Shown here piece after piece: positions 12,316 through 43,151 of a stretch of DNA of 43,151 bases. The stretch is from Deltaproteobacteria bacterium (lineage in GTDB: Bacteria; JAUYMQ01): positions 1-43,151 of the forward strand of contig JAUYMQ010000519.1 in NCBI GenBank assembly GCA_030698575.1, read 5' to 3'. Below the pieces are notes generated by a model. The model did not search any database. It was not told where the DNA came from and saw only the letters and a list, made by a program, of their open reading frames with translations. A program made the translations under genes and the position numbers. Within the stretch, counting starts at the first letter, position 1; every line of letters starts with the position of its first letter.

Positions 12316-12494
12316 TGACCGATCTGGATTTCACGCATTTCCCCGCGTCAGCCGGCGCGTACAACATGGGCGGCGTGGGTATTTTCCTCGCCACGAAGCC
12401 AAGCGCATTTCACCGCGCCGCCGTCAAGTTCTTTTTCGGCTGGGTGTGGGTGGACAACACCATCAACGTTGCCGCCGCCCCTGACGCGCAATGA
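12315..12494 (+). CDS. Hypothetical protein (59 aa)
   Basis: Hand translation gives MTDLDFTHFPASAGAYNMGGVGIFLATKPSAFHRAAVKFFFGWVWVDNTINVAAAPDAQ. GGAGGA lies 8 nt upstream. ATGA overlaps occur at both ends. It is below the ORF-track size cutoff. Confidence 0.5.
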   Translation: MTDLDFTHFPASAGAYNMGGVGIFLATKPSAFHRAAVKFFFGWVWVDNTINVAAAPDAQ

Positions 12495-15121: not shown

Positions 15122-15399
15122 TGAGAAAACGTGCCTACACAAAACCGTATCGCGGGGAACTGCCTAGCGCCATGACCCCGTACGAAGCGCGGGCCTTATG
15201 TTTTTGGGCCGCAATAGGGATTGCAAAATCCGATTCTGGAAGTTATCCCGATGCGGCGGGGGTGGGCACAGACGGCGATATGGGAATTGTAGACTCTTGG
15301 GCGAGAGCACTTAAACTTAAATTGCCGATTCAACCGCGATTCGGTGAAGCTAAAAGAAATGCCCGCTACACAGCCAAGCGCAAGGATATCGAGCGATGA
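15121..15399 (+). CDS. Hypothetical protein (92 aa)
   Basis: Track ORF 15079..15399, taking the ATG at 15121, which overlaps the upstream stop (TGATG). Confidence 0.5.
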   Translation: MRKRAYTKPYRGELPSAMTPYEARALCFWAAIGIAKSDSGSYPDAAGVGTDGDMGIVDSWARALKLKLPIQPRFGEAKRNARYTAKRKDIER

Positions 15400-15420
15400 G
15401 TGATGACCGGGAGTTGCTGA
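15382..15420 (+). repeat. 39-bp gene-junction repeat, copy 1 (AAGGATATCGAGCGATGAGTGATGACCGGGAGTTGCTGA)
   Basis: 36 of 39 positions are identical to 15873-15911. It spans a stop/start junction (..KDIER* / MSDDRELL..). Confidence 0.9.
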
Positions 15421-15890
15421 GACGAGTCTTACTGTCGGCCGATCCCGATTGGGAAACTCGGAAGCTCGGGCATGATTGGCCGGAACTTATACGAGATATT
15501 CGCACCGCATTGACCCACGAACCCGCCCCGCCGCAACCCTCGACTGCCAACCAATCGTCTGCGCCCTCTCCCGAGGGCGTAGGGCAGGGAGAGATTGCGG
15601 AAGGGGGCGGGCCTACGTCGAGAACGGACGCGGAGGAATTCTGGTCATATGAGGCGTCAAATATCAAATGTGTTCGCGCCGAGTTTGCCCGCAACCTTGC
15701 ACTCAAACTGCGCAATGCGGAGAAGGACGCAGAACGGTATCGCGCCAACCGTGAACGATCATACGAAAACCTGTGCGCGCATGCTCGCTCTATGGGGCCA
15801 CAAATGCAGACGCCGGATCGTGATGCGTTCATCCGCTATTACGATGATATTGCCGACCGCGCCCTCGTGCGCAAGGAGATCGAGCGATGA
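15396..15890 (+). CDS. Hypothetical protein (164 aa)
   Basis: ORF track. ATGA overlap with the upstream gene. Confidence 0.55.
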   Translation: MSDDRELLRRVLLSADPDWETRKLGHDWPELIRDIRTALTHEPAPPQPSTANQSSAPSPEGVGQGEIAEGGGPTSRTDAEEFWSYEASNIKCVRAEFARNLALKLRNAEKDAERYRANRERSYENLCAHARSMGPQMQTPDRDAFIRYYDDIADRALVRKEIER

Positions 15891-15911
15891 GCGCTGACCG
15901 GGAGTTGCTGA
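15873..15911 (+). repeat. 39-bp gene-junction repeat, copy 2
   Basis: AAGGAGATCGAGCGATGAGCGCTGACCGGGAGTTGCTGA spans ..KEIER* / MSADRELL.. and is followed by only a 25-codon ORF (15887-15964). Confidence 0.9.
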
Positions 15912-23267: not shown

Positions 23268-24382
23268 GCCACCGGGCGTACTACAACGAGATCGATCCTT
23301 ATGCGGCCGAGTGGTTGCGAAATCTCATGCGCGAGGGATTAATCGCGCCGGGGGATGTTGATGAAAGATCCATCCGACAACTACACCCGATCGATCTTAT
23401 CGGGTACACCCAATGTCACTTCTTCGCAGGAATCGGCGTCTGGTCCTACACGCTCAGGCTCGCTGGTTGGCCCGACGACCGCCCCGTTTGGACCGGCTCT
23501 TGCCCCTGCCAGCCGTTCAGCGCGGCGGGGAAAGGGAAAGGTGCCGCCGACGCCCGGCATCTGTGGCCTGAGTGGTTCCGGCTCATACGAGAGCATCGCC
23601 CTGTCGCAATCTTTGGCGAGCAGGTTAGCGCCGCGATTCGTCACGGCTGGCTCGACCTTGTTTCAGCAGACCTGGAAGGTCTTGACTACGCCATCGGGGC
23701 GACAGTTATGGGCGCACACAGCGTCGGGGCGCCGCACATCCGGCAGCGGCTTTACTTCGTGGCCGACTCCCAATGTGCCGAACGGCGGTCGATCGATCAC
23801 GCACGCGGAAACGAAGGGCAACACGGCATATTTCAACGGGAAGAAAGTGCAGATCGGATTGGAAGCCGTATCGAAACTAGCATCGGGGCCGACGCCATGC
23901 CAGCAGGACGGCCCGAACGGCGGCCCGGCGCAAGGGACGGACAGACTACCGGGAGCGGCTGCGCTTGCCGGCTGGAACACGCCCACGGCGCCGGTAAAGA
24001 CGAACGGCCACCAAGCGGGCAACAATCGCTTTGTGACGAACACGGTGCGTGCGGTGTCGCCCAGGGCGACACCGAGCAGCCGGGATTGGAAGGACACGGC
24101 GGGCATGGCGTTGACGGGAACCAACCCGGACGGATCAGAGCGCATGAGGCTGGATCAATTGGCGCGGCAGGCGCAGTTGGCGGATTCTGGCGAGACGCCG
24201 ACTGGATTTACTGCCGAGGATTCGGAACCATCCCGCCCAGTTACCGACCCGTTGAGCCCGGATCATTCCCGCTGGTTGCAGGGATTGCCGCCAGAATGGA
24301 CAAGCTGCGCGCCTTTGGAAACTGCATCGTTGCTCCGCAAGCAACGGAGTTCGTCCGAGCCTACTGCGGCGTGACGGATTAG
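23252..24382 (+). CDS. DNA (cytosine-5)-methyltransferase, frame-0 ORF (the central ~420 nt looks non-coding in this frame)
   Basis: ORF track, 376 aa. Motifs seen: GSCPCQPFSAAGK (IV), IFGEQV (VI), APHIRQRLYFVA (VIII) and LRAFGNCIVAPQ (X). Between 23765 and 24190 the translation is low-complexity R/G/E/H text with lower GC3. Confidence 0.7.
   Translation: MARGVSHRAYYNEIDPYAAEWLRNLMREGLIAPGDVDERSIRQLHPIDLIGYTQCHFFAGIGVWSYTLRLAGWPDDRPVWTGSCPCQPFSAAGKGKGAADARHLWPEWFRLIREHRPVAIFGEQVSAAIRHGWLDLVSADLEGLDYAIGATVMGAHSVGAPHIRQRLYFVADSQCAERRSIDHARGNEGQHGIFQREESADRIGSRIETSIGADAMPAGRPERRPGARDGQTTGSGCACRLEHAHGAGKDERPPSGQQSLCDEHGACGVAQGDTEQPGLEGHGGHGVDGNQPGRIRAHEAGSIGAAGAVGGFWRDADWIYCRGFGTIPPSYRPVEPGSFPLVAGIAARMDKLRAFGNCIVAPQATEFVRAYCGVTD
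23760..24374 (+). CDS. +1-frame segment of the methyltransferase locus with WPTP-type repeats and RWLQGLPPEW; its status is unresolved
   Basis: This is part of track ORF 23355..24374. It reads SWPTPNVPNGGRS, SGPTPCQQDGPNGG, AGWNTPTAP, ATPSSRDWKD, RLDQLARQAQLA and SPDHSRWLQGLPPEW. By hand count, GC3 here is about 72-77%, against 50-61% for frame 0. Confidence 0.5.
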   Translation, partial: WPTPNVPNGGRSITHAETKGNTAYFNGKKVQIGLEAVSKLASGPTPCQQDGPNGGPAQGTDRLPGAAALAGWNTPTAPVKTNGHQAGNNRFVTNTVRAVSPRATPSSRDWKDTAGMALTGTNPDGSERMRLDQLARQAQLADSGETPTGFTAEDSEPSRPVTDPLSPDHSRWLQGLPPEWTSCAPLETASLLRKQRSSSEPTAA

Positions 24383-24418
24383 CGGTAAATGGAATCATGT
24401 ATATAATTCCCAATTATT

Positions 24419-24468
24419 TGGTAGGCGGTGGGGGACTCGAACCCCCGACCAACGGATTAAAAGTCAGG
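24419..24468 (-). other. tRNA 3-prime-half-like segment (anticodon-loop-like, T-arm, acceptor 3-prime strand, CCA); putative attP core
   Basis: The minus strand reads ..CTTTTAATCCGTTGGTCGGGGGTTCGAGTCCCCCACCGCCTACCA. The T-arm is GGGGG-TTCGAGT-CCCCC. No matching 5-prime acceptor strand (AGGCGGT) or D-arm lies upstream. The integrase gene is about 0.9 kb away. Confidence 0.7.
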
Positions 24469-24600
24469 TGTTGTGCTTTCCGCATCAACCACTTGCGAAA
24501 GGGCTTGCGGAGAAAGTGATATTGCGTTACGGTAGTAACTGCGTGTTGTGAAAAGCAAAACGGTGAAATCGAAAAACTGCTACCCAGGAGCGACCTGACC

Positions 24601-24903
24601 ATGAAAACGGAATGGATTAGTACGAGAAAACAAATGCCCGCGCCCGGTCAGTTTGTGTTGGCCTACGGTGACGCTTGTGAAGGGAGTTATATGATTGACA
24701 AACCCAATAACCTAGGCCCACTATCTGGCCGACAGGCCGGTATCGAAGCCGCTTACTTGCGCTTGCGTGGCTTCGCTTTCTTCTTCGCCAGCTCCGTCCG
24801 TTCCTTGGGCGGTGTGGCGAGCATCCGCCGTGCCAGTTCTTCCAAAGACATGGGTGGCTGCTGTGGCTTGGGGTTAGCGGTCATGGGGGGGTCCTGTGGC
24901 TAA
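24601..24903 (+). CDS. Possible DUF551-like remnant ORF (only the first ~35 aa look protein-like)
   Basis: ORF track. AGGAG lies 10 nt upstream. The N-terminus (MKTEWISTRKQMPAPGQFVLAYGD) resembles DUF551 starts. The remainder is Cys/Gly/Ser-rich and is antisense to a plausible small ORF. Confidence 0.3.
   Translation: MKTEWISTRKQMPAPGQFVLAYGDACEGSYMIDKPNNLGPLSGRQAGIEAAYLRLRGFAFFFASSVRSLGGVASIRRASSSKDMGGCCGLGLAVMGGSCG
24753..24884 (-). CDS. Possible 43-aa basic-tailed protein
   Basis: Hand translation gives MTANPKPQQPPMSLEELARRMLATPPKERTELAKKKAKPRKRK. It looks more protein-like than the overlapping plus-frame text. The SD is weak. Confidence 0.3.
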   Translation of the reverse strand: MTANPKPQQPPMSLEELARRMLATPPKERTELAKKKAKPRKRK

Positions 24904-25159
24904 CGATAAATCAATCGAAGCTATTGCGACCGAAATAAATAACGCGGCCAATGATGCCCTATGCGGCATGTTGGACATTGAGGGCGGTGTCATGGCTACG
25001 GATTGGACGTCAACGAGGGTGGCACTTGGTGTATTACGAGTTTTGGCGCGTTATGAACTTGGAAATCCTGAAGTGCTTGAGAGAGTGATGCAATCCTGTC
25101 AACAACCTTTTGCACATCTTGAGGAGTTAGATCGCATGCTTCCCGGAAAGCATTCTTAG
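24896..25159 (+). CDS. Hypothetical protein (87 aa) in the low-GC att-proximal region
   Basis: ORF track (GTG start). An overlapping minus-strand ORF (24996..25484) is an alternative. I could not tell the two apart. Confidence 0.3.
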   Translation: MANDKSIEAIATEINNAANDALCGMLDIEGGVMATDWTSTRVALGVLRVLARYELGNPEVLERVMQSCQQPFAHLEELDRMLPGKHS

Positions 25160-25383
25160 TATTCCCGTGCAGCGTATTCGGAAATCTATGGAGAGCATGC
25201 TTATCATTCCCTGCGGCCCACGTAGCGTGAATGTATGCATTTCTCTCGTGGCTCGCCGGGAAGCACGGAAGGCGCATCGCGACATGCTGCTGTTCGGGAC
25301 GGGCGTCGTGTGGTGCCCTAATGACGGTGGCGATCCAAAGCACATCCCAATCGAGGAATTTCAGTGGCCGGTCGGGGTGTCCC

Positions 25384-26526
25384 GTGGCGACTAAAACACT
25401 GACGGACTCCGCGATCAAGGCGCTTTCACCAGGAGAAACGGTATGGGACAAGGCGGTGGCGGGGCTGCACGTGCGCGCCAGCAAGACGGCGAAAAGTTTC
25501 TACCTCTTTTTCCGCACCAAGGCGGGCGTCTCGAGGCGGCCGAAGCTGGGTGGCACCCGTATCTTGACCATCGCGCAAGCGCGCGAGATCGCCCGGGCGC
25601 ACCTGGCAGCGGTGTCGGCCGGCCAGGATCCGGTGGCGGAACAACGGCAATCTCGGGGCGAGCCGACGGTATCGGTGTTTTTCGAGAGGTGCTGGCGTGA
25701 GCACTGGTCGTGCAAGAAGGATGCTCGGAATGTACGACGACTCTACGAGAGTCGTGTTGCCCCCCGGCTCGGTCATCAACGAGTGCGTGAACTATGTTAC
25801 CGCGACATCGCTGGGCTTCATTCTGCGCTTGCAGCTACCCCCGTCGAGGCCAACCGGACTCTTGCTTTGCTCAGCAAACTGCTCAATCTGGCCGAGCGAT
25901 ACGGTGAACGAAATCTTGGTACAAATCCCTGCCGACATGTACCCCGATACCCTGAACTGAGCCGGCGGCGCTTCGCCACGGTCGACGAGCTCGCCCGTCT
26001 CGGTCCCCTGCTCGACGCATCGTGGGCTGTCCTGCCCGATTCCGTGGCCTTCATCGGCCTTATGGTGTTCACAGGGATGCGCCCGGGCGAGGTGGAGGCG
26101 GGCCGGCGGGAGTGGATTCACGACACCATCCTGCGCCTTCCCGACAGCAAAACAGGGCAGCGCGACATATACCTGCCCCCACAAGCCTTAGCGATTCTCG
26201 AGCGGTTGCCGGCGCCACCCAAAGCGCCTGACGGGTTGATCCCGCTGGTGGGCGTCAAATATCCCCGGACGCTGTGGGAACGGTTAAGGGACGCAGCAAA
26301 GTGCCCGGATTTGCGGCTATACGACCTGCGGCGCACCTTCGCCACGGTGAGCCTGGCCGGGGGCACATCCATCAGTCTGATCGGGGAAATGCTGGGGCAC
26401 AAGACGGCCCAAACCACGAAGGTCTATGCGCGCCTCATGAGTCAGGCAGCACAGGGGGTGGCGGCGGACACCGGGCAGCGGATGCAGGGACTACTTGGCG
26501 GCCCAGATAAACCCGACATTGGCTAG
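25384..26526 (+). CDS. int: Tyrosine integrase (P4-like)
   Basis: Track ORF 25231..26526, taking the GTG at 25384 (VATKTLTDSAIKALSPGE.. matches the usual N-terminus). Catalytic-region motifs: FTGMRPGE, LYDLRRTFAT and LGHKTAQTTKVYARL. Confidence 0.88.
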   Translation: MATKTLTDSAIKALSPGETVWDKAVAGLHVRASKTAKSFYLFFRTKAGVSRRPKLGGTRILTIAQAREIARAHLAAVSAGQDPVAEQRQSRGEPTVSVFFERCWREHWSCKKDARNVRRLYESRVAPRLGHQRVRELCYRDIAGLHSALAATPVEANRTLALLSKLLNLAERYGERNLGTNPCRHVPRYPELSRRRFATVDELARLGPLLDASWAVLPDSVAFIGLMVFTGMRPGEVEAGRREWIHDTILRLPDSKTGQRDIYLPPQALAILERLPAPPKAPDGLIPLVGVKYPRTLWERLRDAAKCPDLRLYDLRRTFATVSLAGGTSISLIGEMLGHKTAQTTKVYARLMSQAAQGVAADTGQRMQGLLGGPDKPDIG

Positions 26527-26634
26527 GGCGTAGGCCGCGAACACCAGCGCCATGCCCGGGTTGTCGTGGCTCAGGTAGCGCGCCCCGACGCTGAGGTATA
26601 GCACCCCCGCAAGGGCGAGCTCCCACGGCGTCAT
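26491..26634 (-). CDS. Small two-helix membrane protein (47 aa), last gene of the late operon
   Basis: Hand translation gives MTPWELALAGVLYLSVGARYLSHDNPGMALVFAAYALANVGFIWAAK. GC3 is very high. An ATGA overlap joins it to the upstream lipoprotein ORF. It overlaps the integrase 3-prime end convergently by 36 nt. Confidence 0.6.
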   Translation of the reverse strand: MTPWELALAGVLYLSVGARYLSHDNPGMALVFAAYALANVGFIWAAK

Positions 26635-26750
26635 AGGTCAGCGGCCACGCACACCTGCACAGGGCCGGTGACAGTCACGGTCGTAATGTGCGTGACAGTG
26701 ACGCAGCCGGATAGCAGCAGGATACTACAGAGCGTAGCGATCGATTTCAC
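26631..26750 (-). CDS. Mini-lipoprotein (39 aa; lipobox LLSGC), o-spanin-like or exclusion-type candidate
   Basis: Hand translation (GTG start) gives (M)KSIATLCSILLLSGCVTVTHITTVTVTGPVQVCVAADL. It overlaps the end of the hydrolase gene by 26 nt. The SD is weak. Confidence 0.5.
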   Translation of the reverse strand: MKSIATLCSILLLSGCVTVTHITTVTVTGPVQVCVAADL

Positions 26751-27309
26751 GGCGTGCTCGGCTGGCGATCAGTGGGTGCCAGTAGAACTTCTTGGCAAAG
26801 AGGTCGGAGTGCCCGTGGGCGGGGGCTCGACCGCGCCCGCAGTCATAGTTCCGCACGCGCGGGTCATCGCCCGTGTGTCCGCGGGCGCCCATGTCGCCCC
26901 ACAGTTTGTTCAGGAAGTCGGGAATGATTTGCGCCCAACGTACCGCCCGGTCCCCTTTGTTCCAGTACACATGGATCCACTTCAGTTGCGGGGGAAAATT
27001 GATGTCGTGGTCCAGGGCCGGATTGATGAGAATCAGACCCGCGAACATGGCGGCTTCGTAGACCGCTGCCCGGACCAGAACGGTGCAGCCGTTCGAGTGC
27101 CCGCACCCGATGTCCCCGGGCTCGACATGGTCGGCGATGCCCCGGGCGATTACTGGATTACCGAACCACGCGCCAAACAGGCCAATTGTGCCGTAGTCGT
27201 GCTCGAGTGTGCTGAACCCCTCTTCGTTCAGGTAGGGGATGAGCGTATCCGTAGTGCCCGCCCCGCCATCGTGGACATTGAATCCATGCACAAGATGTAC
27301 GGTGGTCAT
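26725..27309 (-). CDS. Alpha/beta-hydrolase (esterase/lipase-like, GHSNG nucleophile elbow)
   Basis: Track ORF 26725..27351, taking the ATG at 27309 (ATGA overlap with the endolysin stop). Motifs seen: VHLVHGF, GCGHSNGC and a C-terminal HGHSDLF. Confidence 0.75.
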   Translation of the reverse strand: MTTVHLVHGFNVHDGGAGTTDTLIPYLNEEGFSTLEHDYGTIGLFGAWFGNPVIARGIADHVEPGDIGCGHSNGCTVLVRAAVYEAAMFAGLILINPALDHDINFPPQLKWIHVYWNKGDRAVRWAQIIPDFLNKLWGDMGARGHTGDDPRVRNYDCGRGRAPAHGHSDLFAKKFYWHPLIASRARREIDRYAL

Positions 27310-27857
27310 GCTTGCGCCTCGCTGGCTATGATGAACAGACGTTTCAGCCACCCCGGTCCGAACACGTCAAAATTCCGGGTGCCGGTGTAGCGCAGCACCC
27401 GCCGGGTCATGAATACGGCGCCGAGCTCCTGCTGCTCCGCGCGGGAGATCGACACCAGAGCGTTGTTGCTCAATACGCCGTCCTGCGGCATGCGGGCGGC
27501 TTGCTGCAACATCTTCACGGCCGGCTCGACCCCCTGGTTCACCGCGCCGTCGAACACGTACAGGGCCAGCGGCCAGGGCAGCATGTCGCAACGGGCGGGC
27601 AGCCAGTACGCCTGAGTCAACCGCTCCCGCGCCTGTGCCAGCGTGGGCTCGCCGTTCTCCCACAAGTCCGGGTGATCCCTGAATGTGACGCCGTAGCAAG
27701 TCTTGCCGCCGGGGTCGCGCGGGTGATCGGCGCATTCCTTTTCGATCACCCGGATAACAATGTCCAAGGCACGTGCCAGAGGCGACTCAGGCACGCCGGT
27801 ATTCCCGGAAAACAAGGTCACGGCGCCTGCTGCGAGAAAGGTGCGGCGAGTCCACAT
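27306..27857 (-). CDS. GH108-type endolysin with an N-terminal Tat-consensus/SAR-like signal
   Basis: Track ORF 27306..28133, taking the ATG at 27857 (TAATG overlap). The N-terminus (MWTRRTFLAAGAVTLFSGNTGV) matches (S/T)RRxFL. RDPGGKTCYGVT and the C-terminal region resemble GH108 plus PG_binding_3 lysozymes. Confidence 0.75.
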   Translation of the reverse strand: MWTRRTFLAAGAVTLFSGNTGVPESPLARALDIVIRVIEKECADHPRDPGGKTCYGVTFRDHPDLWENGEPTLAQARERLTQAYWLPARCDMLPWPLALYVFDGAVNQGVEPAVKMLQQAARMPQDGVLSNNALVSISRAEQQELGAVFMTRRVLRYTGTRNFDVFGPGWLKRLFIIASEAQA

Positions 27858-28183
27858 TAATCGTGCTGGCCACCCAGCAAGTGCAGTACCTCGTGGCCGA
27901 GAATCATCAGCGCACGCCGGTCGTTGAAGTCTTTCGGCTTGGGCGTCACGATCAGGTCGGTGCCACCAGTGGCGCTTTCCAGGTAGCACGCGCTGCCGGC
28001 GCCGCAGTAGCCGTCCGCCCCGACGTTCTCCGTCTCGGTCCAACGCACTTGGAAGCAGGCTTGCTCCTTGTCCGGCGCCCGGTAGAACTTGTAGGGAATG
28101 GCCTCGTCGGCAGCACCCGCAAGAGCGTTCCACAGCAGCATCAGCACCAGAAGGGCGACAATGACCCAGCGGTCGCGGGTCAT
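27857..28183 (-). CDS. Secreted mini metallopeptidase-like protein ending in HEVLHLLGGQHD (HExxHxxGxxH)
   Basis: ORF track, 108 aa. The signal peptide is MTRDRWVIVALLVLMLLWNALAGA|AD. The metzincin-type zinc motif is at the extreme C-terminus. An ATGA overlap joins it to the protease gene. Confidence 0.6.
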   Translation of the reverse strand: MTRDRWVIVALLVLMLLWNALAGAADEAIPYKFYRAPDKEQACFQVRWTETENVGADGYCGAGSACYLESATGGTDLIVTPKPKDFNDRRALMILGHEVLHLLGGQHD

Positions 28184-28905
28184 GGTTTATCTGCGACGGG
28201 ATTCACTCTCATTAAGTACGACTTGTAATTCGCAGGTGTTGCAAAAATTACCGGCAGCCCCACGAACGCTTGATGGGCCGCCACCAAAATCCCGATGATT
28301 TCCCCGGTAGTTTGGTCAATTACCGACGAACCACTGGATCCCGGACTGCCGAAAATCTGTAGCGTGAGATACCCATCCAATCCCGAGCCGGGACGTTCCA
28401 GACGCCCGGACACGATGCCGCTGTAGCGCACCTTTGTTACCCCCAAAGGAAACCCGACGGTGACGATCGGCCGCCCGGGCGCCACATTCGTATCGCTTCC
28501 AAAGCGGAGCACCGATACGTTGAGCGGTTCGTCAACGGCGAAAAACGCCAAGTCCACATCTGGTGTGCCGAACGCTTTTCGATATTTTTGCGGGTCCACT
28601 TCCCAGCGGGGTACACTCCACACTCGCGCGGCGTAGAATTGTTTTCCGTCGAAGCTCACTAGGTACGAAACGTCTTTTTCGACGCAGTGATACGCCGTCA
28701 CAAGTAGGGTTCTGTGTTCAGTTTTTTCCGCGGCTGTGGTCGAACACAAAAATCGCAATGACCCGTTATTCTCCTGTGCGTACAAGGCAGCCACGGCGGG
28801 TGATGTGCGCTCAAACATCGATTCCAGAGACTCGGCGGCCCGCACCATTCCGGCGGCGCCCATCAGCAAAGCTGCGGCGAGAAGCAGTAAGGGTTTGATC
28901 TGCAT
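28180..28905 (-). CDS. Secreted trypsin-like (S1/PF13365-type) serine protease
   Basis: ORF track, 241 aa. The signal peptide is MQIKPLLLLAAALLMGAAGMVRA|AE. Triad context: AYHCV (His), DVDLAFF (Asp) and GSPGSSGSSV (Ser). Confidence 0.8.
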   Translation of the reverse strand: MQIKPLLLLAAALLMGAAGMVRAAESLESMFERTSPAVAALYAQENNGSLRFLCSTTAAEKTEHRTLLVTAYHCVEKDVSYLVSFDGKQFYAARVWSVPRWEVDPQKYRKAFGTPDVDLAFFAVDEPLNVSVLRFGSDTNVAPGRPIVTVGFPLGVTKVRYSGIVSGRLERPGSGLDGYLTLQIFGSPGSSGSSVIDQTTGEIIGILVAAHQAFVGLPVIFATPANYKSYLMRVNPVADKP

Positions 28906-28922
28906 GATGTGATTTCCTCAAG

Positions 28923-30140
28923 TCATCCCGCGAACGAAACCCACGCGGTTTTGGGCGCCGCCCGCTGGCGGTCGACGTACACGGGCATTCGATATGTGAT
29001 TTTATACTTCGGATGCGTAATCCACAAGGCTTGTTGCGGATGCTCGAACGGGAAATTGTAGTTGTAGGCGTACTCGTCATAGCCCTTGAGCGAGCCGTTG
29101 ACAATGAGACGTGTTAAGTGGATGTACTGGTGCCAGTGGCCGCAGATCATCACGTCGAAGTCCATGTCGATCGCCGCGTTGCGGCTCGCCTTCTTGTGGC
29201 TGCCGCGGGTCAGTGGACCCAACGCGCCAATCATGGAATCGCCACCCCGGAACTGGTCGCCATGCGTGAGCAGGTAGCGATGCCCGTAGACACGGTAATA
29301 GGCGTCGGGACCGTCGGGAATGTAAAAGCGAATACGCGCATCGCCTTCGAAGCTCTTGGCGAGGAAACGGTAGAGCAACCAATCGAACGAGGTATGGTGC
29401 CGGTCCTTCGCCCAAATCTTGTGCGTGTCGCGCCCGTGGTTGCCGGTGACGCAGGGCAGAAACACCGAGCCGAAGGCGTTGGCCAACTGCGTGATGACGC
29501 CGCGTAGCACGCCGTACAAGTCCTCAATCGCGGGCATGGAGTTGATCTCGTTGCTGGCGGTGAGTTCTTCGTGGATGTTGCCCGATATCATGTCCCCACC
29601 CAGGGGCACGACGATGCCCGGATAGTCCATCTTCGGGGAGAGGATTTTCAGCAGATGCACCGCGGAATCGACGCAGGTCTGCATGCGCTCGCGGGCAATC
29701 CGTAGATTGTATTGGTTTACCCCGTTGATCTGGCTCGGATGCACTACTTCAGCCCAATGCAGATCCGACAAAAACAGGGTGGGCACACCCGGGCTGCCGT
29801 GCTGCTTGCGTGGGTTGATAATGAACTCCGGCGGGTCCAGATCTTCGACTTTGTGCCGGATATTACCAACAACACCTTTGATGATGTCGATGTCGGCGCT
29901 TTGCTTCTCCTTCGCCCGCAGTGCCGCCTCGAGCCGAGTGATGGTGGATTTGAGTCGCCCGGGACTGTCAGGGCGTTCGATGCCGGAGGCTATGCCCGCT
30001 CGGTTAGCCGCGCGGAGCCGTTCTCTCAAAGTTGAACGGGGGATTTTTATTGCTTTTACGGCAGCGACTTCGGATCCATATTTTGCCACCGCGTCGACAG
30101 CCTCCTGCATCTTCTCGACGGACATGGGGGGTTGTGCCAT
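28923..30140 (-). CDS. Calcineurin-like metallophosphoesterase with an N-terminal HTH-like region
   Basis: ORF track, 405 aa. Motifs seen: LSDLHW, GGDMISGN, GNHG, THGD and GHWH. The N-terminus has IKIPRSTLRERLRAANRAG. AGGAG SD upstream. Confidence 0.8.
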   Translation of the reverse strand: MAQPPMSVEKMQEAVDAVAKYGSEVAAVKAIKIPRSTLRERLRAANRAGIASGIERPDSPGRLKSTITRLEAALRAKEKQSADIDIIKGVVGNIRHKVEDLDPPEFIINPRKQHGSPGVPTLFLSDLHWAEVVHPSQINGVNQYNLRIARERMQTCVDSAVHLLKILSPKMDYPGIVVPLGGDMISGNIHEELTASNEINSMPAIEDLYGVLRGVITQLANAFGSVFLPCVTGNHGRDTHKIWAKDRHHTSFDWLLYRFLAKSFEGDARIRFYIPDGPDAYYRVYGHRYLLTHGDQFRGGDSMIGALGPLTRGSHKKASRNAAIDMDFDVMICGHWHQYIHLTRLIVNGSLKGYDEYAYNYNFPFEHPQQALWITHPKYKITYRMPVYVDRQRAAPKTAWVSFAG

Positions 30141-30154
30141 CAGTGCTCCTGTCG

Positions 30155-30583
30155 TTAGAATTTGATGTTGAACATAGCCATTCCCAGCCGGAGCTCGCCT
30201 TCCTCGCAGCCGGCGTATTCGACCAGCAGATCGACATACTTGCGCACAAACCCGCGCCCGTGGGTGCCGTATCCCATCGCGTGAACCAGCTCGTGCAGCA
30301 GCACGTCGATGGTGTCGTGGCGCAGCCCTTCGTGGGTGTCCGCGCGCCGGGTGATCCTGATCTTGCTGAAGCCAACGCAGTAGGAGTATTTGACCCGCCG
30401 GGTGAAACCCACCGACGGGCAGGGCAAGCCTTTACGCCCGTGCTTCGACCACACGTTCGCAGCGATCGCGCGCAAGTCCTTGAGCGGTCGCGGGCGGAAG
30501 GCGTTATCTTGCATGAACATGCGCTCGAACTTATAAAGGCGTCGGGTCTCGACGCCGCGCAGAATGTTGGGGGCGCGGGGCAT
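30155..30583 (-). CDS. SprT/WLM-like zinc metallopeptidase-like protein (HELVHAMGYGTH)
   Basis: Track ORF 30155..30694, taking the ATG at 30583, 1 nt after the stop of the holin-like ORF. The HExxH plus downstream His pattern is present. Confidence 0.6.
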   Translation of the reverse strand: MPRAPNILRGVETRRLYKFERMFMQDNAFRPRPLKDLRAIAANVWSKHGRKGLPCPSVGFTRRVKYSYCVGFSKIRITRRADTHEGLRHDTIDVLLHELVHAMGYGTHGRGFVRKYVDLLVEYAGCEEGELRLGMAMFNIKF

Positions 30584-30584
30584 G

Positions 30585-30749
30585 CTACCGTCGGCGCCGC
30601 TTCTCGAACCAACTGAAGATTTGCAAACAGCCCCACACGATTGCCACCAGACTTGCGATAGGCGCGAGCCATGACGCCGCGGCGCTGCCACCAATGACCA
30701 GCCAGTTCAACCAGCCCGGTGTGCTGTCAGCAACTTGAGAGATAGTCAT
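30585..30749 (-). CDS. Holin/pinholin-like protein (54 aa, two TM segments, KRRRR tail)
   Basis: Hand translation gives MTISQVADSTPGWLNWLVIGGSAAASWLAPIASLVAIVWGCLQIFSWFEKRRRR. It is the first gene after the tailspike and is below the ORF-track size cutoff. Confidence 0.5.
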   Translation of the reverse strand: MTISQVADSTPGWLNWLVIGGSAAASWLAPIASLVAIVWGCLQIFSWFEKRRRR

Positions 30750-30776
30750 CGTGGCACCAACGAGTTGTGTTGAGCG

Positions 30777-32900
30777 TCAATTCACGCTTCTGGCGATTTC
30801 ATACCATGTCGATGATCGGCAAACGAGCGTCAGCGTATCCCCCGCGCTTGTGGTGAAGTTTCCGGCCAGTGACAGGTTGCTGCCATCCGTAACGGTTAGA
30901 ACACCGTCGAAGATCAGGGTCACGATGCGGCCAGAGACGGTTGACGCGGTACTGATCGAAGTGATGCCCGTTGTCCCGGAGATGTAAAAAACATTCCCTG
31001 TCGCGCTGTTGCCGCTCAGGTCCAGGTCTGCGGCGGACGCGACGGTTGCCGCAAGGGGCTTGATACCACCATACCCCACCCTTGCGGCATCACCGCTTCC
31101 GTTACTGACGGCTCTACACGCCACGGTCAGCGCACCCGAACCCATGTTGCTCAGGTCAACCGTATCGACGTTCTCCATCAGTGTGAGCTGGCTGGCTGCG
31201 TTGAACGACAGCGCCATGTTGCTATTGCGGATAATGGACTGGCTTGTGCGCAGACTAAGCGTCACTACGCCAGCCCCTTGGTTGTAAAGGGTGTCAAACT
31301 CCATCCAATCGCTCCGGTTGGTGACGTTCTCCACGCACACGTGCGCGTTGCCGGAAGTGTTGTTTGTCGTGATGTTCTTAATGCTTCCTGCGAACAGTCC
31401 GTTCGTCAGGAAGTAACGCCGTGCAGCCGCAGACACCGCATCGTTGATCTTTACCCCATCTATATGAACGCCGATGGCGTTGGTCAGGCGGAAAAAGGCG
31501 GTTGTCCCTGCGCTGGTCGTCACTTGCGATGCGCGTCCACCCCTTACGAAAATGCCGACAATTTCTGTACCCGTGGCTCCGTCAACTACCAGAAGCTCGT
31601 TCGCATCGTCGAACTCCCCGGAGAGGTTGCGGAAGTTAATGTTCGACACCCCGTCGTTAAGATACACGCCCTTTCCGCCCTGAACGTAGAAGTCGTCAAT
31701 CGAAAGCGTGTTGGAATCCGAAATCTTCATGCCGTATTGGCTCAGGTCGCCGGTAGTCTGCGCGAAAAATAATTTGTTGAATCTAGAATACAGTGCGCCG
31801 TATCCAATGGCGTCGGCATCATCCAGCAGCACACCTCCATAGCAAGTCCCCGAAAACCGGATGCGCTCGATAAATGACGCATTCACTCCCGTGCAGTGAA
31901 TGCCGTAGGAGGTCCCGCCCTGATTGTGAATCACAATGTCGTGGATATTGCTGTTGTGCATCCCGGTCTTGATCGCGCTCCCGCCGAGAGAGTTTTGATC
32001 GAAGCAGATGCCGGATATCTCCACGCCCTCGGTATAGGTGGCAATGGTGACCCCGATAGACGTGCCGCTGAGCTTTTTCAGCACCGTGCCATCAGTCGGC
32101 TCGTTCGTTACGTCCGTAACGCCAGCGCCGATCAGTTTCTGCCCGTAGGTATCCAGCGTGATGCCCCCGGACCATCCGTAGACGCCCTTGGGGAACCAGA
32201 CGTTTTGACCAGTAGCAATTGCCGCAGCAATCGCCGCAGTATCGTCCGTCACCCCATCCCCAACCGCGCCGAAGTCATTGACGCTGACAATCTCCCGCGC
32301 TTTCGCTTGTACCGTCCGCGCAACCGACCCGGTGCCGGATTGGATGAAACCGCTCAGAGCCGAACCGCCGGAGGCCGCAAGGTCAGTGCGCAGGCTGGTG
32401 TCGGTGCCGCTGCCGGCCGATGCCGACGGATTACCATCAGCATCGTACACGAAGTACTTGCTCGCCCGTGCGGCCTTCGTCGGCATCGGGTCGATATCCG
32501 TGACATCCCCGTCGGGCTGGCGCAGAGTCCTGTCCACCCGATTGTCCAGACGCTGCGCGATGAGGGTGAGCCGGTCCAACGGTTCCTCAACCTGAGTTTC
32601 CACCGCGAGTTCATCGCCGTCCACCAGGTCGACCGCTTGCGTGATGTCGGGATCCTGGTAGATCAGCAGCGTCTCGCCCGTAGCCGGCGCCGTGACCATC
32701 GTGACCGTGCCGCCGCCCGCGTCGCCCGCGCCCGTCACCGTGTAGTGCGTGGTGATGGTCTGCACCGTCTCGACTTCATCGGCGTCGACCAGCACGACAA
32801 CTATGTCGCCGTTCGCCAAGAACTTGCTCGAATAGGCGAACGCCGTGGTCGTGCCGTTGCCCGAGTACGTATACCGATTGGTGGTGGTGGAAATGGTCAT
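30777..32900 (-). CDS. Tailspike/tail fibre with a pectate-lyase-superfamily (beta-helix) domain
   Basis: ORF track, 707 aa. The N-terminal adaptor-like region reads TNRYTYSGNGTTTAFAY. VNDFGAVGDGVTDDTAAIAAAI is typical of Pectate_lyase_3 depolymerases. Confidence 0.82.
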   Translation of the reverse strand: MTISTTTNRYTYSGNGTTTAFAYSSKFLANGDIVVVLVDADEVETVQTITTHYTVTGAGDAGGGTVTMVTAPATGETLLIYQDPDITQAVDLVDGDELAVETQVEEPLDRLTLIAQRLDNRVDRTLRQPDGDVTDIDPMPTKAARASKYFVYDADGNPSASAGSGTDTSLRTDLAASGGSALSGFIQSGTGSVARTVQAKAREIVSVNDFGAVGDGVTDDTAAIAAAIATGQNVWFPKGVYGWSGGITLDTYGQKLIGAGVTDVTNEPTDGTVLKKLSGTSIGVTIATYTEGVEISGICFDQNSLGGSAIKTGMHNSNIHDIVIHNQGGTSYGIHCTGVNASFIERIRFSGTCYGGVLLDDADAIGYGALYSRFNKLFFAQTTGDLSQYGMKISDSNTLSIDDFYVQGGKGVYLNDGVSNINFRNLSGEFDDANELLVVDGATGTEIVGIFVRGGRASQVTTSAGTTAFFRLTNAIGVHIDGVKINDAVSAAARRYFLTNGLFAGSIKNITTNNTSGNAHVCVENVTNRSDWMEFDTLYNQGAGVVTLSLRTSQSIIRNSNMALSFNAASQLTLMENVDTVDLSNMGSGALTVACRAVSNGSGDAARVGYGGIKPLAATVASAADLDLSGNSATGNVFYISGTTGITSISTASTVSGRIVTLIFDGVLTVTDGSNLSLAGNFTTSAGDTLTLVCRSSTWYEIARSVN

Positions 32901-32938
32901 AGATCACCCATTATCTCAATATGATGCGGTTTTAGCAA

Positions 32939-35900
32939 TCAGGGAGCGGACGAACGCAGCATTTCCTTGCCGGCCTTCGCCAACTCGATCATCTGAAAAT
33001 ACAATGTATCAATGAGTTGCCGCTGCTCTTCCGCGGGAATATCCGGGTTTTTATTGACCAACCGGATCGACTGACTGATGACCCCCAGCGAGTCCACGAT
33101 ATCGTCAAGTTGGACAAACAAATCGGGGTCAATCTTCTGAATGCGGTCCAGCGCGTCCATGTCCCCTTTTTCGGCGGCGTGCATGTATGTGTCGAACACC
33201 TTTTTGCGCGCCGTGTAGTCGTCGTAGAAGGTCTGGATCGACGCTGCTGTTGCGGACGGATAACGCACCACGAACGCCTTTACCACTGGAATGTCGGCCA
33301 GCGTCGCCAGTGGCTTCACCGGGTCCGGCAGCACCCCTGTCTCGCGCAGCCCCTTGTCCAAAAGCTGAACGACGTAGCTGCCCAAGCCCCCGGTCCATCC
33401 GCGAATATAGTTATCGAGCAAAGCCGGCGACGTGATGGCCCGCGCCACACCCCCGGTAATCATCGCCTCTTCGTCCAGGGACCGCGGGACCACGCCGGGA
33501 ATTCGCCCGATCAGGCCCCCAACGGCCTTCGTGAGTTCGGTCGTGTAGTCGTTGTACTGATACTCGCCCAGCAGCCGCTCCTTGCTGTAGGGGATGATCG
33601 GGTTGCCGGTGAACATGCTGCGGTTGGCGAACTGGTCGATGATCGGCGAAATGAACGTCGGCACGAACGACAAGCCGAACACCTGCTCAAATGCGTCGTC
33701 CATCCGGCGCAGCGCGTCGGGGTTGTCCGTGAAAAACGATTCCAGCAGCCGCTCGGGTATGGTCCCAAACAGGACGCCGATCTCAAACGGCTTCGGGACT
33801 CGGTATACGGTGTCATCCGTCATCACGATCCAAAACAGGTCTTTCTGCCACTGCGGAATCTCGCGCCAACGCGGATCTTCGTGGTTGGCCCACCACAGCA
33901 GCACCGACGGCAACGTGATGGACGCAACCGCTTTCCCCGTAAAGTTCAGGGGATTGTCCTTGGCGGCTCGCGCGGTGCGGTCAATCCCCTCAACCCGCGC
34001 ATTCCAGAAGGCGACCAACATGTTCACCGCGCGCGTCTGCGCGCCGATGCGCGCAAAGTCCAGTGTGACTTCCCGCGACTCGAATCCCGCGGCCAGGATA
34101 TCCACCTTGGCTGCGCCCTTGCCGCCGCCCGCTCTCTTGAATTCCCCGACCCGCGTGGCGTTCTCGAACAACTCCGATGCGATGCGCAGCACCTCGATCG
34201 GGGACTTGGCTACGTTCCATCCACGCTCGAACAGTCCGGCGCTTTTGTAGGCGTCCAGACTGAACAGCCGCTCCTGCAGGTAGGCTCGGTCCATCGAAAC
34301 GAGCGTCGCGTTTGCCCCACCCGACTTTAGCCAGTTCTGGTAGGTTTCACCCGATTTGGCGATTTCAGTGACACCGCGAATCGCGTCCAGCACAGGCACG
34401 TACCCGTTCTTGGAGAATATGAACGCCGACAGTTGGTCGCGCGCTACGTTCCGCAGCATGAAGTCGGGCGTCAGCACGGCACCCGCCCGTAGCGTGCGTG
34501 CCGGCGTCGCGAGAATACGCGCCCATATCGGGGCGCTTTCCCGGTCCAAAGCCTTCATAGCCTCGGCCGCCTCAAACGGGACTTCGTAGACTTCCCGCTT
34601 GCCGTCTCGAAACACGGCGATCTGATTGTCCTTGGGGTTGAACGCATTCGCCCGGAACACAGTAAAGGATTCCGCCTGCGCCTCCGTGACCCCGTACTCT
34701 TTCAGAAGCGCCACCACTTCCTTGTCCGTGAGCTCGATCGGTTTGACAGGCGTCTTGACCCGCTGCACCAGGGCTTCGCCTTTCGGGGATTGCTCGGCCA
34801 ATTTAACAAGCGCCAACCCGGCCGCATTGCGTTCCGCGAGTGTCGAGTAGAGATAGGTGTTCTTTATGATGGACTCGATCGGGTCGACAATCGTTCGTTC
34901 CGATCCCCGGATCCCCTTGATGGGGTTGCGCACGGTCATCCCCGCACCGGCGCCCGCCTTGGACTCTCCCGGCTCCATGACCCGGAAGAGCGGCACGTAG
35001 TCCTTGTTCGCTTCCTTGATGACTTCGAAGGCGTCCCGCGACAGCACCCCGGAGTCGCGCAGGAATGTGAGCAGCGAGTCCTGATAGTCCTGCAGTTCCT
35101 TGAACACCGACTCGTACTTTTTACCGGCCTTCACCGTCTCGGCCGCCTCTTTCAGCGGCACGCCAGTTTCGATACCTCGTTTTTGCAATTCCAGCGCGCG
35201 GCGGCTGACTGCATAGGCCCGCATGCCATCGAGATCACTCTTCACAGGGTCAAGCACCTGGCGCAGCCCCTTGCCCACTGTCTTGTAGTCGCCGAATCGG
35301 TACGCCCCGTATTCAAGAAACTGGTCGGCGCGGCCGAACATCCCTCGGGTCAGCCGTGCCAGTTTGTACGGATCCTCAATCGCGGGCAGCTTCTTTCCTT
35401 CGGCCAGTTCATCTACCAACCGGCGGATCGGAAACAGATCGTCCTTGACCTGTGTGTAGAAACGGTCCAGTGTGTAGGCTCGCTCCTTTGGCTGTCCGAC
35501 GCTGATTCGGTCCAACACCGCCTGCTGCGCGGCGACAGGCTCGGCATCCGGCTTCGCTTCCGGCTCCGCGCGCGGGGGCGGCTTCGGCTCCCCGGCGTAC
35601 GCGCGCGGCACCTCGATGTTCTTGGATGCCAAGTCCTGTGAGACGGAAGGCTTTGCCTCTGCGTCCACGACAACCTGCTCCGGTTTCACTCCGAAGCGTT
35701 TGTACCCCTCGCGCAGCTTCGCCGCCCCCTTAACTGCACCCTTCGCGCCGACCAGGATCACGGCAGCGTCCACAAAATCAGTTGCCTTCGGAACTTCCCC
35801 TTCAAGCGCGCTGCCCACCGTAACAAGGGTTGTGACTTCGCTGCCCAACACCGCAGCGCCTCGCACCACGGAAGGCAACGGCTTCGCCAGCTGCGCGACC

Positions 35901-38015: not shown

Positions 38016-38573
38016 TTACACCCCGTCAAACGAGTAGTCGGACGCGCCGTAGTCGCCCAACTGATACCCGGTCTGCGCCGTCTTGGCCGGCTGGCTGCCA
38101 TAATACTTCCCGGCCCCCATCAAGATCGCGCTGCCCGCCTGCATATACCCTTGACGAGTTGCAGCTTTTCCGCGTGCCCGGTCGAGCGCCGCCGTTTCCT
38201 GATAGCCCATCGCCCGAAGCTCGCCCTTGTAGAGAATGTTCTGGCGGTCAAGCTCGGCTGCCGCGGCGCTCGATTCCAGCACGTCAAGGGGCGACCCCTC
38301 GACCGTGATGCCGGATGCGCCGTAGGCCGCGCGTGCCGCGCCGATCGCGCGCAGGGTACCCCGCTTCTGCGCGTCGGCATCCCGCGCCGCCTGCTCGCGC
38401 GCAATCCCGGCATCGCGCTCGGCGATCCCGGCGTTATACTCGCTGGCTTTCCGGGCGCTCGACGCCTGACTAATCGCACTTATGACGGTAAGAGCAGTCC
38501 CGGCCAGCAGCACACCCCCCGCAACAGCCGAGCCGCCACCTACCGCGGCAAGAAAAGGAGCAGCAAAGGCCAT
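38016..38573 (-). CDS. Internal virion protein with an N-terminal hydrophobic segment (185 aa)
   Basis: Track ORF 38016..38606, taking the ATG at 38573 (AGGGGG SD 6 nt upstream). It starts MAFAAPFLAAVGGGSAVAGGVLLAGTALTVI. Confidence 0.6.
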   Translation of the reverse strand: MAFAAPFLAAVGGGSAVAGGVLLAGTALTVISAISQASSARKASEYNAGIAERDAGIAREQAARDADAQKRGTLRAIGAARAAYGASGITVEGSPLDVLESSAAAAELDRQNILYKGELRAMGYQETAALDRARGKAATRQGYMQAGSAILMGAGKYYGSQPAKTAQTGYQLGDYGASDYSFDGV

Positions 38574-42437: not shown

Positions 42438-43151
42438 TTAAACCGGATTCATCAGGACTGTCACGACAATGCCGTCACTCGACTGGATGGCGTTGGCGTA
42501 TTTCACTGCCAAGCGATCCCCGGCGGCCATCGTCAGCGTCGCCACGGTTGTCGAAACCGTCGCGGATTGCACCGTGTTAGCGGTCGCATTCAGATCGAAC
42601 GATCCCGACTGATGCAGACTAGTGCCGGCCCCCGGTGCAGCCGTGCCGGTGTCTTTGATGACAGTCATGGTGCTGGTACCGCCCGCCGCAACGGCGTGCA
42701 CTTCCTTGATAGCCACCACGCGGCATGCGCGCGGCGCAACGAAGAATACCGCATCCGTCGCTTCCGGCGTGCTTCCCCCGACGTACGACGCGGCGAAGAT
42801 GCCGGACGCGCCGTTAACCTGCACCTCGCCCGGAACCCCGGTCGATACCGCAGCACCCGGAACCAGGTCCACGTTGCCGCCCGCCGCCGTGCCGCCCGCG
42901 CCGTCGCCGCCCGTGATCGTGACATCCGAACCAGCACCCGCCGTCGCCGCGCCCACCGCGATATTGACCGCACCCGCCACGCCCGTCGCACCCGCCGCGC
43001 CGGAAGTGATCGTGATCGCGCCACCCGCAGCCGATCCGGCCCCGGCACCGCCGGTAAGCACCGCAGCGCCACCCGCACGATTGCCGCCCCCGGCCGCACC
43101 GCCGATCAAGCTGGCCGCACCGCCGACTGCATCGTTTCCACCCGCGCCGCC
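42438..43151 (-). CDS. Glycine/alanine-rich repeat structural protein, C-terminal part (ORF enters from the right edge)
   Basis: The frame of track ORF 42438..43109 stays open to 43151, at an exact codon boundary. It reads GGAGGNDAVGGAASLIGGAAGGGNRAGGAAVLTGGAGAGSAAGG..., followed by a non-repetitive, beta-rich domain of about 110 aa. Confidence 0.8.
   Translation of the reverse strand, partial: GGAGGNDAVGGAASLIGGAAGGGNRAGGAAVLTGGAGAGSAAGGAITITSGAAGATGVAGAVNIAVGAATAGAGSDVTITGGDGAGGTAAGGNVDLVPGAAVSTGVPGEVQVNGASGIFAASYVGGSTPEATDAVFFVAPRACRVVAIKEVHAVAAGGTSTMTVIKDTGTAAPGAGTSLHQSGSFDLNATANTVQSATVSTTVATLTMAAGDRLAVKYANAIQSSDGIVVTVLMNPV

Follow-up and report, generated by a model that had tools for sequence, protein, structure and literature searches.

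Closest Described Systems

In phage lambda, the late genes end with those for holin, endolysin, and the Rz/Rz1 spanins, one after another. The nine genes analyzed here (g1 to g9; Table 1) lie on the minus strand of contig JAUYMQ010000519.1 (assembly GCA_030698575.1, Deltaproteobacteria bacterium), of which the whole stretch of 43,151 bp is hereafter called the window. As in lambda, the late genes close with genes for a small membrane protein and a muramidase and with a lipoprotein gene that overlaps its predecessor. The nine genes differ from the lambda arrangement in that the lipoprotein gene (g8) overlaps the gene of a putative soluble esterase (g7), an inner-membrane spanin (i-spanin) is missing, and about 2.7 kb of unrelated genes separate g1, in the holin slot, from the endolysin g6, as an earlier note on this sequence had correctly stated.

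The nearest annotated relative of the window is the uncultured temperate podovirus MW202713.1 (isolate ct7QV12, 42.7 kb). Both have a tail fiber gene followed by one or more genes for membrane proteins, a SprT-like gene, a gene for a metallophosphoesterase (MPE; 65% identical), an endolysin, a g9-like gene, and a convergent integrase. However, MW202713 has holins recognized by PHROG, a leaderless GH19 endolysin, and an embedded Rz/Rz1-type pair (the full order being holin, holin, SprT-like, MPE, GH19 endolysin, g9-like, HNH, and an i-spanin with an embedded Pro-rich outer-membrane spanin, or o-spanin), and it lacks the S1 protease, the mini-zincin, the α/β hydrolase, and the g8-type lipoprotein found here.

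In the pinholin and signal-arrest-release (SAR) endolysin system of phage 21, and likewise for the Sec-exported Lys44 of Oenococcus phage fOg44, the leader of the endolysin implies an export that is independent of the holin and an activation by depolarization. The predicted product of g1, with two hydrophobic segments (the first one rich in Gly and Ala) and a charged C-terminus, and that of g6, with a weakly hydrophobic export leader, recall these systems, but the g6 leader has a TRRTFL motif and an AxA motif that point to the twin-arginine translocation (Tat) route rather than to Sec or SAR. A further type of lysis protein is the disruptin, represented by gp28 of phage phiKT; no gene for a small cationic amphipathic peptide was seen in the cassette, where the candidate for a comparable role is an enzyme.

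Mycobacteriophages use as third lysis protein Lysin B (LysB), a mycolyl-arabinogalactan esterase directed against the outer lipid layer (PMC6139136, PMC6116005). The g7 protein, like LysB, is predicted to be an α/β esterase with a Ser-Asp-His triad and without signal peptide, encoded directly after the endolysin, so that the analogy is one of position and mechanism. There is no sequence relationship between the two, the structural matches (Foldseek E of 2e-3 to 5e-3, TM-score of about 0.4) are no better than those to generic esterases, and mycolic acids are absent from the Proteobacteria (Methylophaga, Shewanella) that are the hosts of the g7 family. Finally, an identifiable spanin is lacking in about 13% of the phages of Gram-negative hosts, whose way through the outer membrane is an open question in phage lysis (Kongari et al. 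2018, PMC6139136). The genome described here falls in this group. With its sisters it makes a natural swap experiment, as the same end of the late operon carries Rz/Rz1 in some lineages and an esterase-like gene with a small lipoprotein gene in others.

A Probable Mosaic without Spanins

The region is read here as a mosaic of four kinds of genes at the distal end of the late operon, not as one machine (probability of roughly 0.6): a lysis core, a pair of cytoplasmic proteins that may process DNA, two exported accessory proteins, and a putative esterase with a small lipoprotein and the membrane protein g9 in the place of the spanins.

The window represents a temperate podovirus-like phage, whose genome is complete and circularly permuted. 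This follows from a 288-aa Gly-rich open reading frame (ORF) of the minus strand that runs from position 821 to position 1 and across the window ends to 43106, and from repeat families, D2 and D3, that occur on both sides of the junction (1-821 and 42438-43151). The same ORF is coupled by ATGA to a second Gly-rich gene (43109-42438). Because the genome is complete, the absence of a spanin can be stated for the whole phage. It encodes no Rz/Rz1-type or unimolecular spanin: a genome-wide scan for proteins with an N-terminal transmembrane (TM) segment and a soluble remainder, which in i-spanins is a periplasmic coiled coil, gave only the ORF at 38016-38573, which was rejected as an internal virion protein (phrog_418, 1.1e-25), and no ORF of the genome combines a lipobox with a C-terminal TM segment, as a unimolecular spanin does. 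When all start codons are scanned, no credible lipobox ORF besides g8 turns up in the genome, and g8 ends at 39 aa without a TM segment. A unimolecular spanin split between g8 and g9 was also considered and rejected, since the two ORFs do not share a reading frame and neither is long enough to cross the periplasm. The earlier note had recognized no two-component spanin in the operon, and this holds genome-wide. Of the two observations that it named as contrary to its hypothesis, a canonical Rz/Rz1 pair elsewhere was not found, whereas a variable presence of the inserted genes was, for g4 and g5, among about 85 loci.

Gene order in the sister phages places g7 and g8, after the endolysin, in the position of the Rz/Rz1 pair. 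In two related contigs (L004 and L111), a g1 homolog, the MPE, membrane proteins, and an endolysin of the SLT type are followed by overlapping i- and o-spanins. In two others (L006 and L007), a 94-aa lipoprotein comes first, then a g1 homolog, a SprT-like protein, the MPE, and a secreted protein of 84 aa, after which follow a GH108 endolysin without leader, a hydrolase with 60% identity to g7, a lipoprotein like g8, and the integrase. A comparison of synteny, suggested earlier as a way to see which genes travel together, thus finds the SprT-like and MPE genes associated and the hydrolase and lipoprotein arrangement shared with L006 and L007, while g4 and g5 stand alone.

The nine ORFs are real genes, tightly packed. 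The ORFs, their motifs, their order, and every junction described earlier were reproduced on the minus strand of 26440-30800. The junctions are TAGCATG between g1 and g2, TAA plus 14 nt with AGGAG between g2 and g3, TGA plus 17 nt with GAGGAAA between g3 and g4, ATGA between g4 and g5, TAATG between g5 and g6, ATGA between g6 and g7, an overlap of 26 nt at the 3′ end of g7 within which g8 starts, and ATGA between g8 and g9; the last 36 nt of g9 overlap the end of the convergent integrase gene. The G+C content at third codon positions (GC3) is 0.62–0.90 across all nine frames. An independent gene caller found seven of the nine ORFs with identical lengths on a near-identical contig, L002, missing only g1 and g8, and both of these have homologs at equivalent positions (for g1 with E of 5e-6 in L004 and 2.7e-5 in L006, for g8 with E of 2e-4 in the L006 lipoprotein). 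The gene order is not an assembly artifact, since two other sequencing runs yielded a near-identical phage (L002 and L003).

Rather than a separate operon, the nine genes form the distal part of a long late transcription unit. The first of them starts only 27 nt past the stop codon of the tailspike gene, and a scan of 24300-33200 with a terminator consensus gave eight sites, for 8.0 expected from shuffled sequence, with none of the minus-strand candidates being intergenic, as all lie inside coding sequence. Of the single expression unit proposed earlier, the tight coupling stands, with the genes at the end of this longer unit. The same note counted at least three products with export signals; there are four, of which g4 and g5 have Sec-type signals, g6 a Tat- or SAR-like one, and g8 a lipobox.

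Table 1. Coordinates (window positions) of the nine genes and of the neighboring features at the integrase end
Feature	Position	Strand	Description
g1	30585-30749	minus	54 aa, membrane protein, holin candidate
g2	30155-30583	minus	142 aa, putative HExxH zincin, SprT/WLM-like
g3	28923-30140	minus	405 aa, N-terminal helix-turn-helix and metallophosphoesterase (MPE)
g4	28180-28905	minus	241 aa, predicted exported serine protease of trypsin fold
g5	27857-28183	minus	108 aa, predicted exported, C-terminus HEVLHLLGGQHD
g6	27306-27857	minus	183 aa, putative GH108 muramidase (endolysin) with leader
g7	26725-27309	minus	194 aa, predicted α/β hydrolase
g8	26631-26750	minus	39 aa, putative lipoprotein, GTG start
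g9	26491-26634	minus	47 aa, two hydrophobic segments
Integrase	~25.3-26.5 kb, stop at 26526		convergent with g9
tRNA-Lys(UUU)	24419-24494		between early genes and integrase

The Putative Lysis Core

The lysis core is best read as g1 and g6, possibly together with g9. The g1 protein has a hydrophobic stretch at residues 21-48, Gly/Ala-rich in its first half and strongly hydrophobic thereafter, and a C-terminus that reads EKRRRR. Neither Pfam nor PHROG has a family that it matches (the best hit is phrog_7486, with E of 0.025). Its homologs in L004 and L006 are encoded directly after the tail fiber gene and before the SprT/MPE genes, and in MW202713 the same slot contains the two PHROG holins (phrog_2359, 2.7e-13; phrog_2508, 1.6e-6). 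Hence, g1 is a holin candidate of pinholin-like aspect, for which the topology with two TM segments is a prediction.

The g6 protein matches Glyco_hydro_108 (PF05838; 1.3e-14, 54.9 bits for a cut-off of 21.2) and the endolysins of phrog_315 (3.6e-28), which identify it by sequence as a GH108 N-acetylmuramidase endolysin. Read from the ATG at 27857, it has a leader of 30 residues, MWTRRTFLAAGAVTLFSGNTGVPESPLARA (27768-27857), with the twin-arginine motif TRRTFL, a weakly hydrophobic core of Gly, Ala, and Thr (AAGAVTLFSG), and ARA before the mature domain. The composition of the segment FLAAGAVTLFSGNTG would fit SAR, with a hydrophobicity that remains under the TM threshold. The motif [ST]RRxFL is expected by chance in the first 15 residues with a frequency of about 1e-5, by a rough estimate, which makes it likely that g6 is exported, by the Tat or the SAR route. 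No Tat-exported phage endolysin was found in a literature search, and a 2018 review of phage lysis has no mention of Tat export. A separate peculiarity of this protein is that at 27732-27746 (residues 38-42) the EGGY motif reads EKEC, the Glu being kept and both glycines and the Tyr replaced; this variant is unusual among the inspected homologs.

The g9 protein belongs, by its sequence relatives, to a conserved family of small membrane proteins of 47–49 aa with two hydrophobic segments, found in 19 related loci (L110, L120, L121, L145, and L151 among them). The genes of this family are always at the end of the operon, and after the endolysin where there is one. For example, the g9-like gene is directly after the endolysin in MW202713 (E of 2e-4); in L120 and L121 it is the last gene ahead of the integrase, and in L110 it is downstream of the MPE. 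In phages from lakes, it ends a convergent operon that faces the pair of MPE and SprT-like genes.

The SprT-Like and Metallophosphoesterase Pair

The genes g2 and g3 split the lysis cassette, and their products appear to be cytoplasmic proteins, not envelope hydrolases, as neither has an export signal. The g2 protein contains HELVH at residue 97 and no TM segment or signal sequence, and its Pfam matches are below cut-off (WLM, 0.007, 16.9 bits for a cut-off of 26; SprT-like, 0.065, 13.5 bits for 25.6), with a further match to TIGR04338 in NCBIfam (0.0027). The proteins at the same position in L006 and L007 have precomputed SprT-like matches labeled as weak. An orthology between g2 and the SprT-like gene of L006 was rejected because only the HExxH region aligns, and g2 is thus a divergent positional analog. 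The g3 protein matches phrog_284 ("exonuclease"; 6.6e-49 over residues 76-387), Metallophos_2 of Pfam being reached only below threshold, and its motifs DxH (126-128), GD (182-183), GNH (233-235), and GHxH (334-337) are invariant in the alignment of the family (alignment A4). It can therefore be assigned by sequence to the calcineurin-like metallophosphoesterases of the phrog_284 type, and it is probably a nuclease akin to Mre11/SbcD and not a lysis enzyme.

Metagenomes contain 472 relatives of the MPE. The related loci of this work were gathered through it, and they consist of two viral sequences, 80 of these 472 metagenomic ones, and the JGI contigs L006 and L007 (84 in total). A SprT-like gene of the L006 type adjoins the MPE in 45 of the 84, in either order, and on many contigs of lake phages no recognizable lysis gene accompanies the pair. 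Distant homologs of the MPE in cyanophage S-CBS1 and Bacteroides phage BU1-1 are among genes for exonuclease VIII, annealing protein, and DNA polymerase. These contexts elsewhere suggest that the pair processes DNA or DNA–protein structures, one possibility being the processing of DNA ends or of DNA–protein adducts. Since MW202713 also has the SprT-like and MPE genes between its holins and its endolysin, their insertion is ancestral to the clade.

Two Probable Accessory Proteins with Export Signals

The g4 protein is a member of Trypsin_2 (1.8e-18, 68 bits for a cut-off of 27.6) with an N-terminal hydrophobic signal at residues 1-24, of Sec type, and candidates for the catalytic triad at His73, Asp118, and Ser191. 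It also matches HtrA/DegP chains in the Protein Data Bank (PDB; about 1e-5) and lies far under the cut-offs of the HtrA models of NCBIfam. Its 241 aa leave no space for a PDZ domain, so the protein falls outside the definition of HtrA/DegP, which includes one or two C-terminal PDZ domains. No close relative of g4 was found in IMG/VR, and a scan for defense systems with PADLOC returned only generic protease similarity for it.

A word-index search found no relatives of g5, and an exhaustive search with HMMER gave 80 representative clusters. The family consists of proteins of 90–130 aa whose leaders are of the Sec or lipobox kind. They share two conserved Cys (alignment A6) and end in an invariant GHExxHxxGxxH, after which mostly just an Asp or Glu follows. 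It has no family in Pfam and no match in the PDB, g5 itself having a weak hit to Reprolysin_5 below the Pfam cut-off; its AlphaFold2 (AF2) model has a pLDDT of 93 and no significant match by Foldseek (the best being MMP-11, with E of 3.7). A relationship with the 94-aa lipoprotein of L006, which has the motif HEAGSH, was rejected because BLASTP gave no alignment. The protein has the zinc motif of metzincins, HExxHxxGxxH, but ends one residue past the third His, so that there is no Met-turn and it does not fall within that group. By sequence, g5 appears to be a member of an uncharacterized family of exported "mini-zincins." Genes of this family in other phages are in varied contexts unrelated to lysis (before the terminase genes, in early regions).

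Neither g4 nor g5 was found in the approximately 85 related loci besides their own phage, including L006 and L007 with their spanin-less layout, and the GC3 of g4 is 0.62 versus 0.74–0.83 in its neighbors, which suggests a recent acquisition. Because of this absence from every related locus and the deviant composition of g4, the two look like accessory genes (morons) particular to this phage.

The α/β Hydrolase and the Small Lipoprotein

The g7 protein contains a nucleophile elbow GHSNG at residues 70-74 (in the context GHSNGC) and a putative triad Ser72-Asp120-His167. In an alignment with 34 homologs, Ser72 and Asp120 are invariant and His167 is nearly so. The protein has a weak match to Hydrolase_4 of Pfam (5.5e-6) and neither a TM segment nor an export signal. 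Its AF2 model (pLDDT of 94.7) has 201 matches in the PDB by Foldseek with E ≤ 1e-3, all of them α/β hydrolases. The fold of this model and the triad identify g7 as a predicted serine esterase of the α/β-hydrolase fold, of a minimal type without lid. A more specific function was sought and had to be discarded, as the search of PDB sequences was negative and Foldseek against the PDB and viral models gave only generic small esterases and lipases (TM-score of 0.5–0.6).

There are 263 homologs of g7, of about 190 aa, many of them on phage-sized contigs of 30–50 kb from soil, groundwater, and aquatic samples, and 105 were confirmed in IMG/VR. Bacterial genomes gave only three matches, in metagenome-assembled genomes (MAGs) of Methylophaga and Porticoccus, from which the hosts of family members can be placed among Proteobacteria; a further homolog is in Shewanella phage S0112. 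Among 62 nonredundant loci, the two genes on either side of the hydrolase include GH108 (four loci), Peptidase_M15_3 (four), SLT (one), and CHAP (one), besides further endolysin and amidase families of PHROG, and terminase large subunits in about 8–10. A peptidoglycan hydrolase is thus adjacent in about 12–14 of the 62 loci (approximately 20%), whereas about 4–5 would be expected from random placement in a genome of 50–60 genes, by a rough estimate. For example, a TM protein, GH108, a hydrolase coupled to it by start and stop codons, and the terminase follow one another in L056; in L061 the order is GH108, TM protein, hydrolase; and in L092 GH108 is joined to the hydrolase by an ATGA junction. 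In L042 and L012 (Methylophaga), a tail protein precedes the hydrolase, a 46-aa TM protein, and an M15 endolysin, and in Shewanella phage S0112 the order is hydrolase, endolysin, terminase. The hydrolase also adjoins an endolysin in L074. No credible lipoprotein was found within about 5 kb of the hydrolase in L056, L061, L092, L042, L012, and S0112. Some members of the family have C-terminal TM anchors, which hints at a substrate close to a membrane. A literature search found no lysis enzyme of the α/β-hydrolase type in phages of Gram-negative bacteria.

The g8 protein has the lipobox LLSGC, and its mature part would have 24 aa with one Pro. Its homolog in L006, also downstream of the hydrolase, has a Pro-rich tail. 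The weak PHROG matches of g8 are confined to its N-terminal end, that is, to the signal peptide (Rz-like spanin, E of 0.06–0.09; Cor, 0.054).

Proposed Course of Lysis and Alternative Readings

From these domain identities and gene orders we infer a course of events in which g6 would be exported before lysis and be held inactive or tethered. The depolarization of the inner membrane by g1 would then release g6, and the peptidoglycan would be degraded. The products of g2 and g3 would form a cytoplasmic DNA-processing pair, encoded between the holin and endolysin genes, and those of g4 (HtrA-like without PDZ) and g5 would reach the periplasm through Sec as products of accessory genes. At the outer membrane, g7 might be freed once inner membrane and wall are breached and attack the ester-linked lipids there or those of lipoproteins, g8 being either its helper or a remnant; otherwise there would be no dedicated step at this membrane. 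Such an action of g7 is our best guess for the step, and a tentative one.

Several observations weigh against this account. The leader of g6 was found in none of 13 inspected homologs, the 120 best homologs having about 155–160 aa. Alternative starts exist at codon 13 (GTG, giving 171 aa, as in one database call) and at codon 31 (TTG, giving a leaderless protein of about 155 aa), so the leader depends on the choice of start codon, lacks the support of homologs, and is ambiguous; nor did the scans of Pfam and NCBIfam, reporting to E of 0.1, retrieve a Tat-signal family for it. The g1 homolog of L006 accompanies a leaderless endolysin, to which a strict pinholin role is ill suited. The g7 protein lacks an export signal and a specific structural match, and most of its homologs have no recognizable endolysin beside them. 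In L011 the hydrolase is inside the head-tail module, and in L070 a spanin-like pair is directly upstream of it, two contexts that make a simple replacement of spanins less likely. The lipoproteins that flank g7 homologs in about 12 loci are not one family, as they show no homology with each other. In L109 and L120, the GH108 endolysin is followed by neither spanin nor hydrolase, so the clade may tolerate having no outer-membrane disruptor. And the roles given to g1, g2, g5, g7, g8, and g9 are drawn from sequence and context.

If all nine genes formed a joint multi-enzyme module for envelope disruption, acting on peptidoglycan, protein, and ester bonds in place of spanins, as the earlier note had proposed, one would understand their tight coupling on one strand, the four products with export signals, and the lack of a spanin in the genome. 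Yet translational coupling is ordinary in late operons of phages and is no proof of a shared function. Moreover, g2 and g3 appear cytoplasmic, are conserved apart from lysis genes, and are kin to nucleases of replication modules, and g4 and g5 are absent from all relatives, including the spanin-less L006 and L007. The inserted genes are therefore not retained as one envelope-hydrolase module, and a joint function of all nine is very unlikely; what survives of that hypothesis is narrower, namely the putative esterase g7 and lipoprotein g8 in the spanin slot. About equally improbable is a cryptic spanin in which g8 is a degenerate o-spanin with a noncanonical partner, an unusual i-spanin or g9. 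The overlap of g8 with the preceding gene, as in genes of o-spanins, and the Pro-rich tail of its L006 homolog are in line with it, and Kongari et al. (2018, PMC6139136) point out that proteins of other topologies might work as spanins, but with 24 residues and one Pro in mature g8 and a short loop in g9 neither could bridge the periplasm, and the preceding gene g7 encodes an apparently soluble enzyme without TM segment.

For g7 itself, two readings compete. It may be, with or without g8, a third lysis function and the Gram-negative counterpart of LysB, reaching the outer membrane after the action of holin and endolysin and cutting acyl esters of phospholipids, lipid A, or lipoproteins, so that spanins would be dispensable. 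Its position exactly at that of the sister-phage Rz/Rz1 pair, a catalytic triad conserved across the 263 homologs, the coupling or adjacency to endolysins of the GH108, M15, SLT, and CHAP types in unrelated phages (among them Shewanella phage S0112 and Methylophaga prophages), at least six such cassettes without lipoprotein nearby, the TM anchors of some members, and the existence of spanin-less phages at a frequency of 13% (PMC6139136) argue for it. The link with endolysins is nevertheless partial, L070 and L011 have the contexts mentioned above, the fold matches are generic, and most of the metagenomic contigs are fragments of phages whose spanin could lie elsewhere, which leaves this reading in doubt. 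The stronger form of it, in which the family is an unrecognized third lysis function that replaces spanins and works here with an endolysin exported through Tat, a route not yet described, is rather unlikely. Alternatively, g4, g5, g7, and g8 may be unrelated morons near the attachment site (for lysogenic conversion, superinfection exclusion, or receptor modification) in a phage without outer-membrane step, for which shear or the fragility of the host envelope would be enough. The end of a late operon beside an integrase and tRNA-Lys is a classic position of morons, and the variable presence of g4 and g5, the composition of g4, the non-lysis contexts of the g5 family, the gene content of L109 and L120, and the weak resemblance of g8 to the signal-peptide region of Cor-type exclusion lipoproteins all fit. 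Against this, the genes lack a separate promoter or terminator and are all coupled translationally to late genes, the hydrolase is enriched beside endolysins, and no defense system was matched by PADLOC; the explanation is possible, if improbable, for the four genes together. Were the esterase a moron, the region would be the ordinary end of a mosaic operon. Further leads, each of interest by itself, are the candidate Tat-exported endolysin, the widespread family of exported mini-zincins, and the conserved SprT-like/MPE pair.

Genome Setting

The plus strand carries the early genes, at about 9–24.4 kb, and the minus strand the late genes. The tRNA-Lys(UUU) beside the integrase probably marks attP. 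A tRNA-like sequence is found at the same place in the relative L120, adjoining its integrase. The large internal virion protein resembles its counterparts in podoviruses of Pelagibacter and Bacillus.

The early region contains several repeats. At its start, seven overlapping copies of a 132-nt sequence are arranged in tandem in a register of 33 nt (9640-9969), and they are followed by four overlapping copies of 30 nt in a register of 15 nt (10020-10094), the period of which suggests a sequence coding for pentapeptide repeats. A direct repeat of 43 nt (93% identical), at 15378-15420 and 15869-15911, 491 nt apart, covers a putative start codon and could point to a pair of small paralogous early genes. 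Finally, downstream of a RuvC-like resolvase, the ORF at 12491-12838 encodes a 115-aa protein with multiple TM segments and no PHROG match, which could be another membrane protein or a protein of lysis timing.

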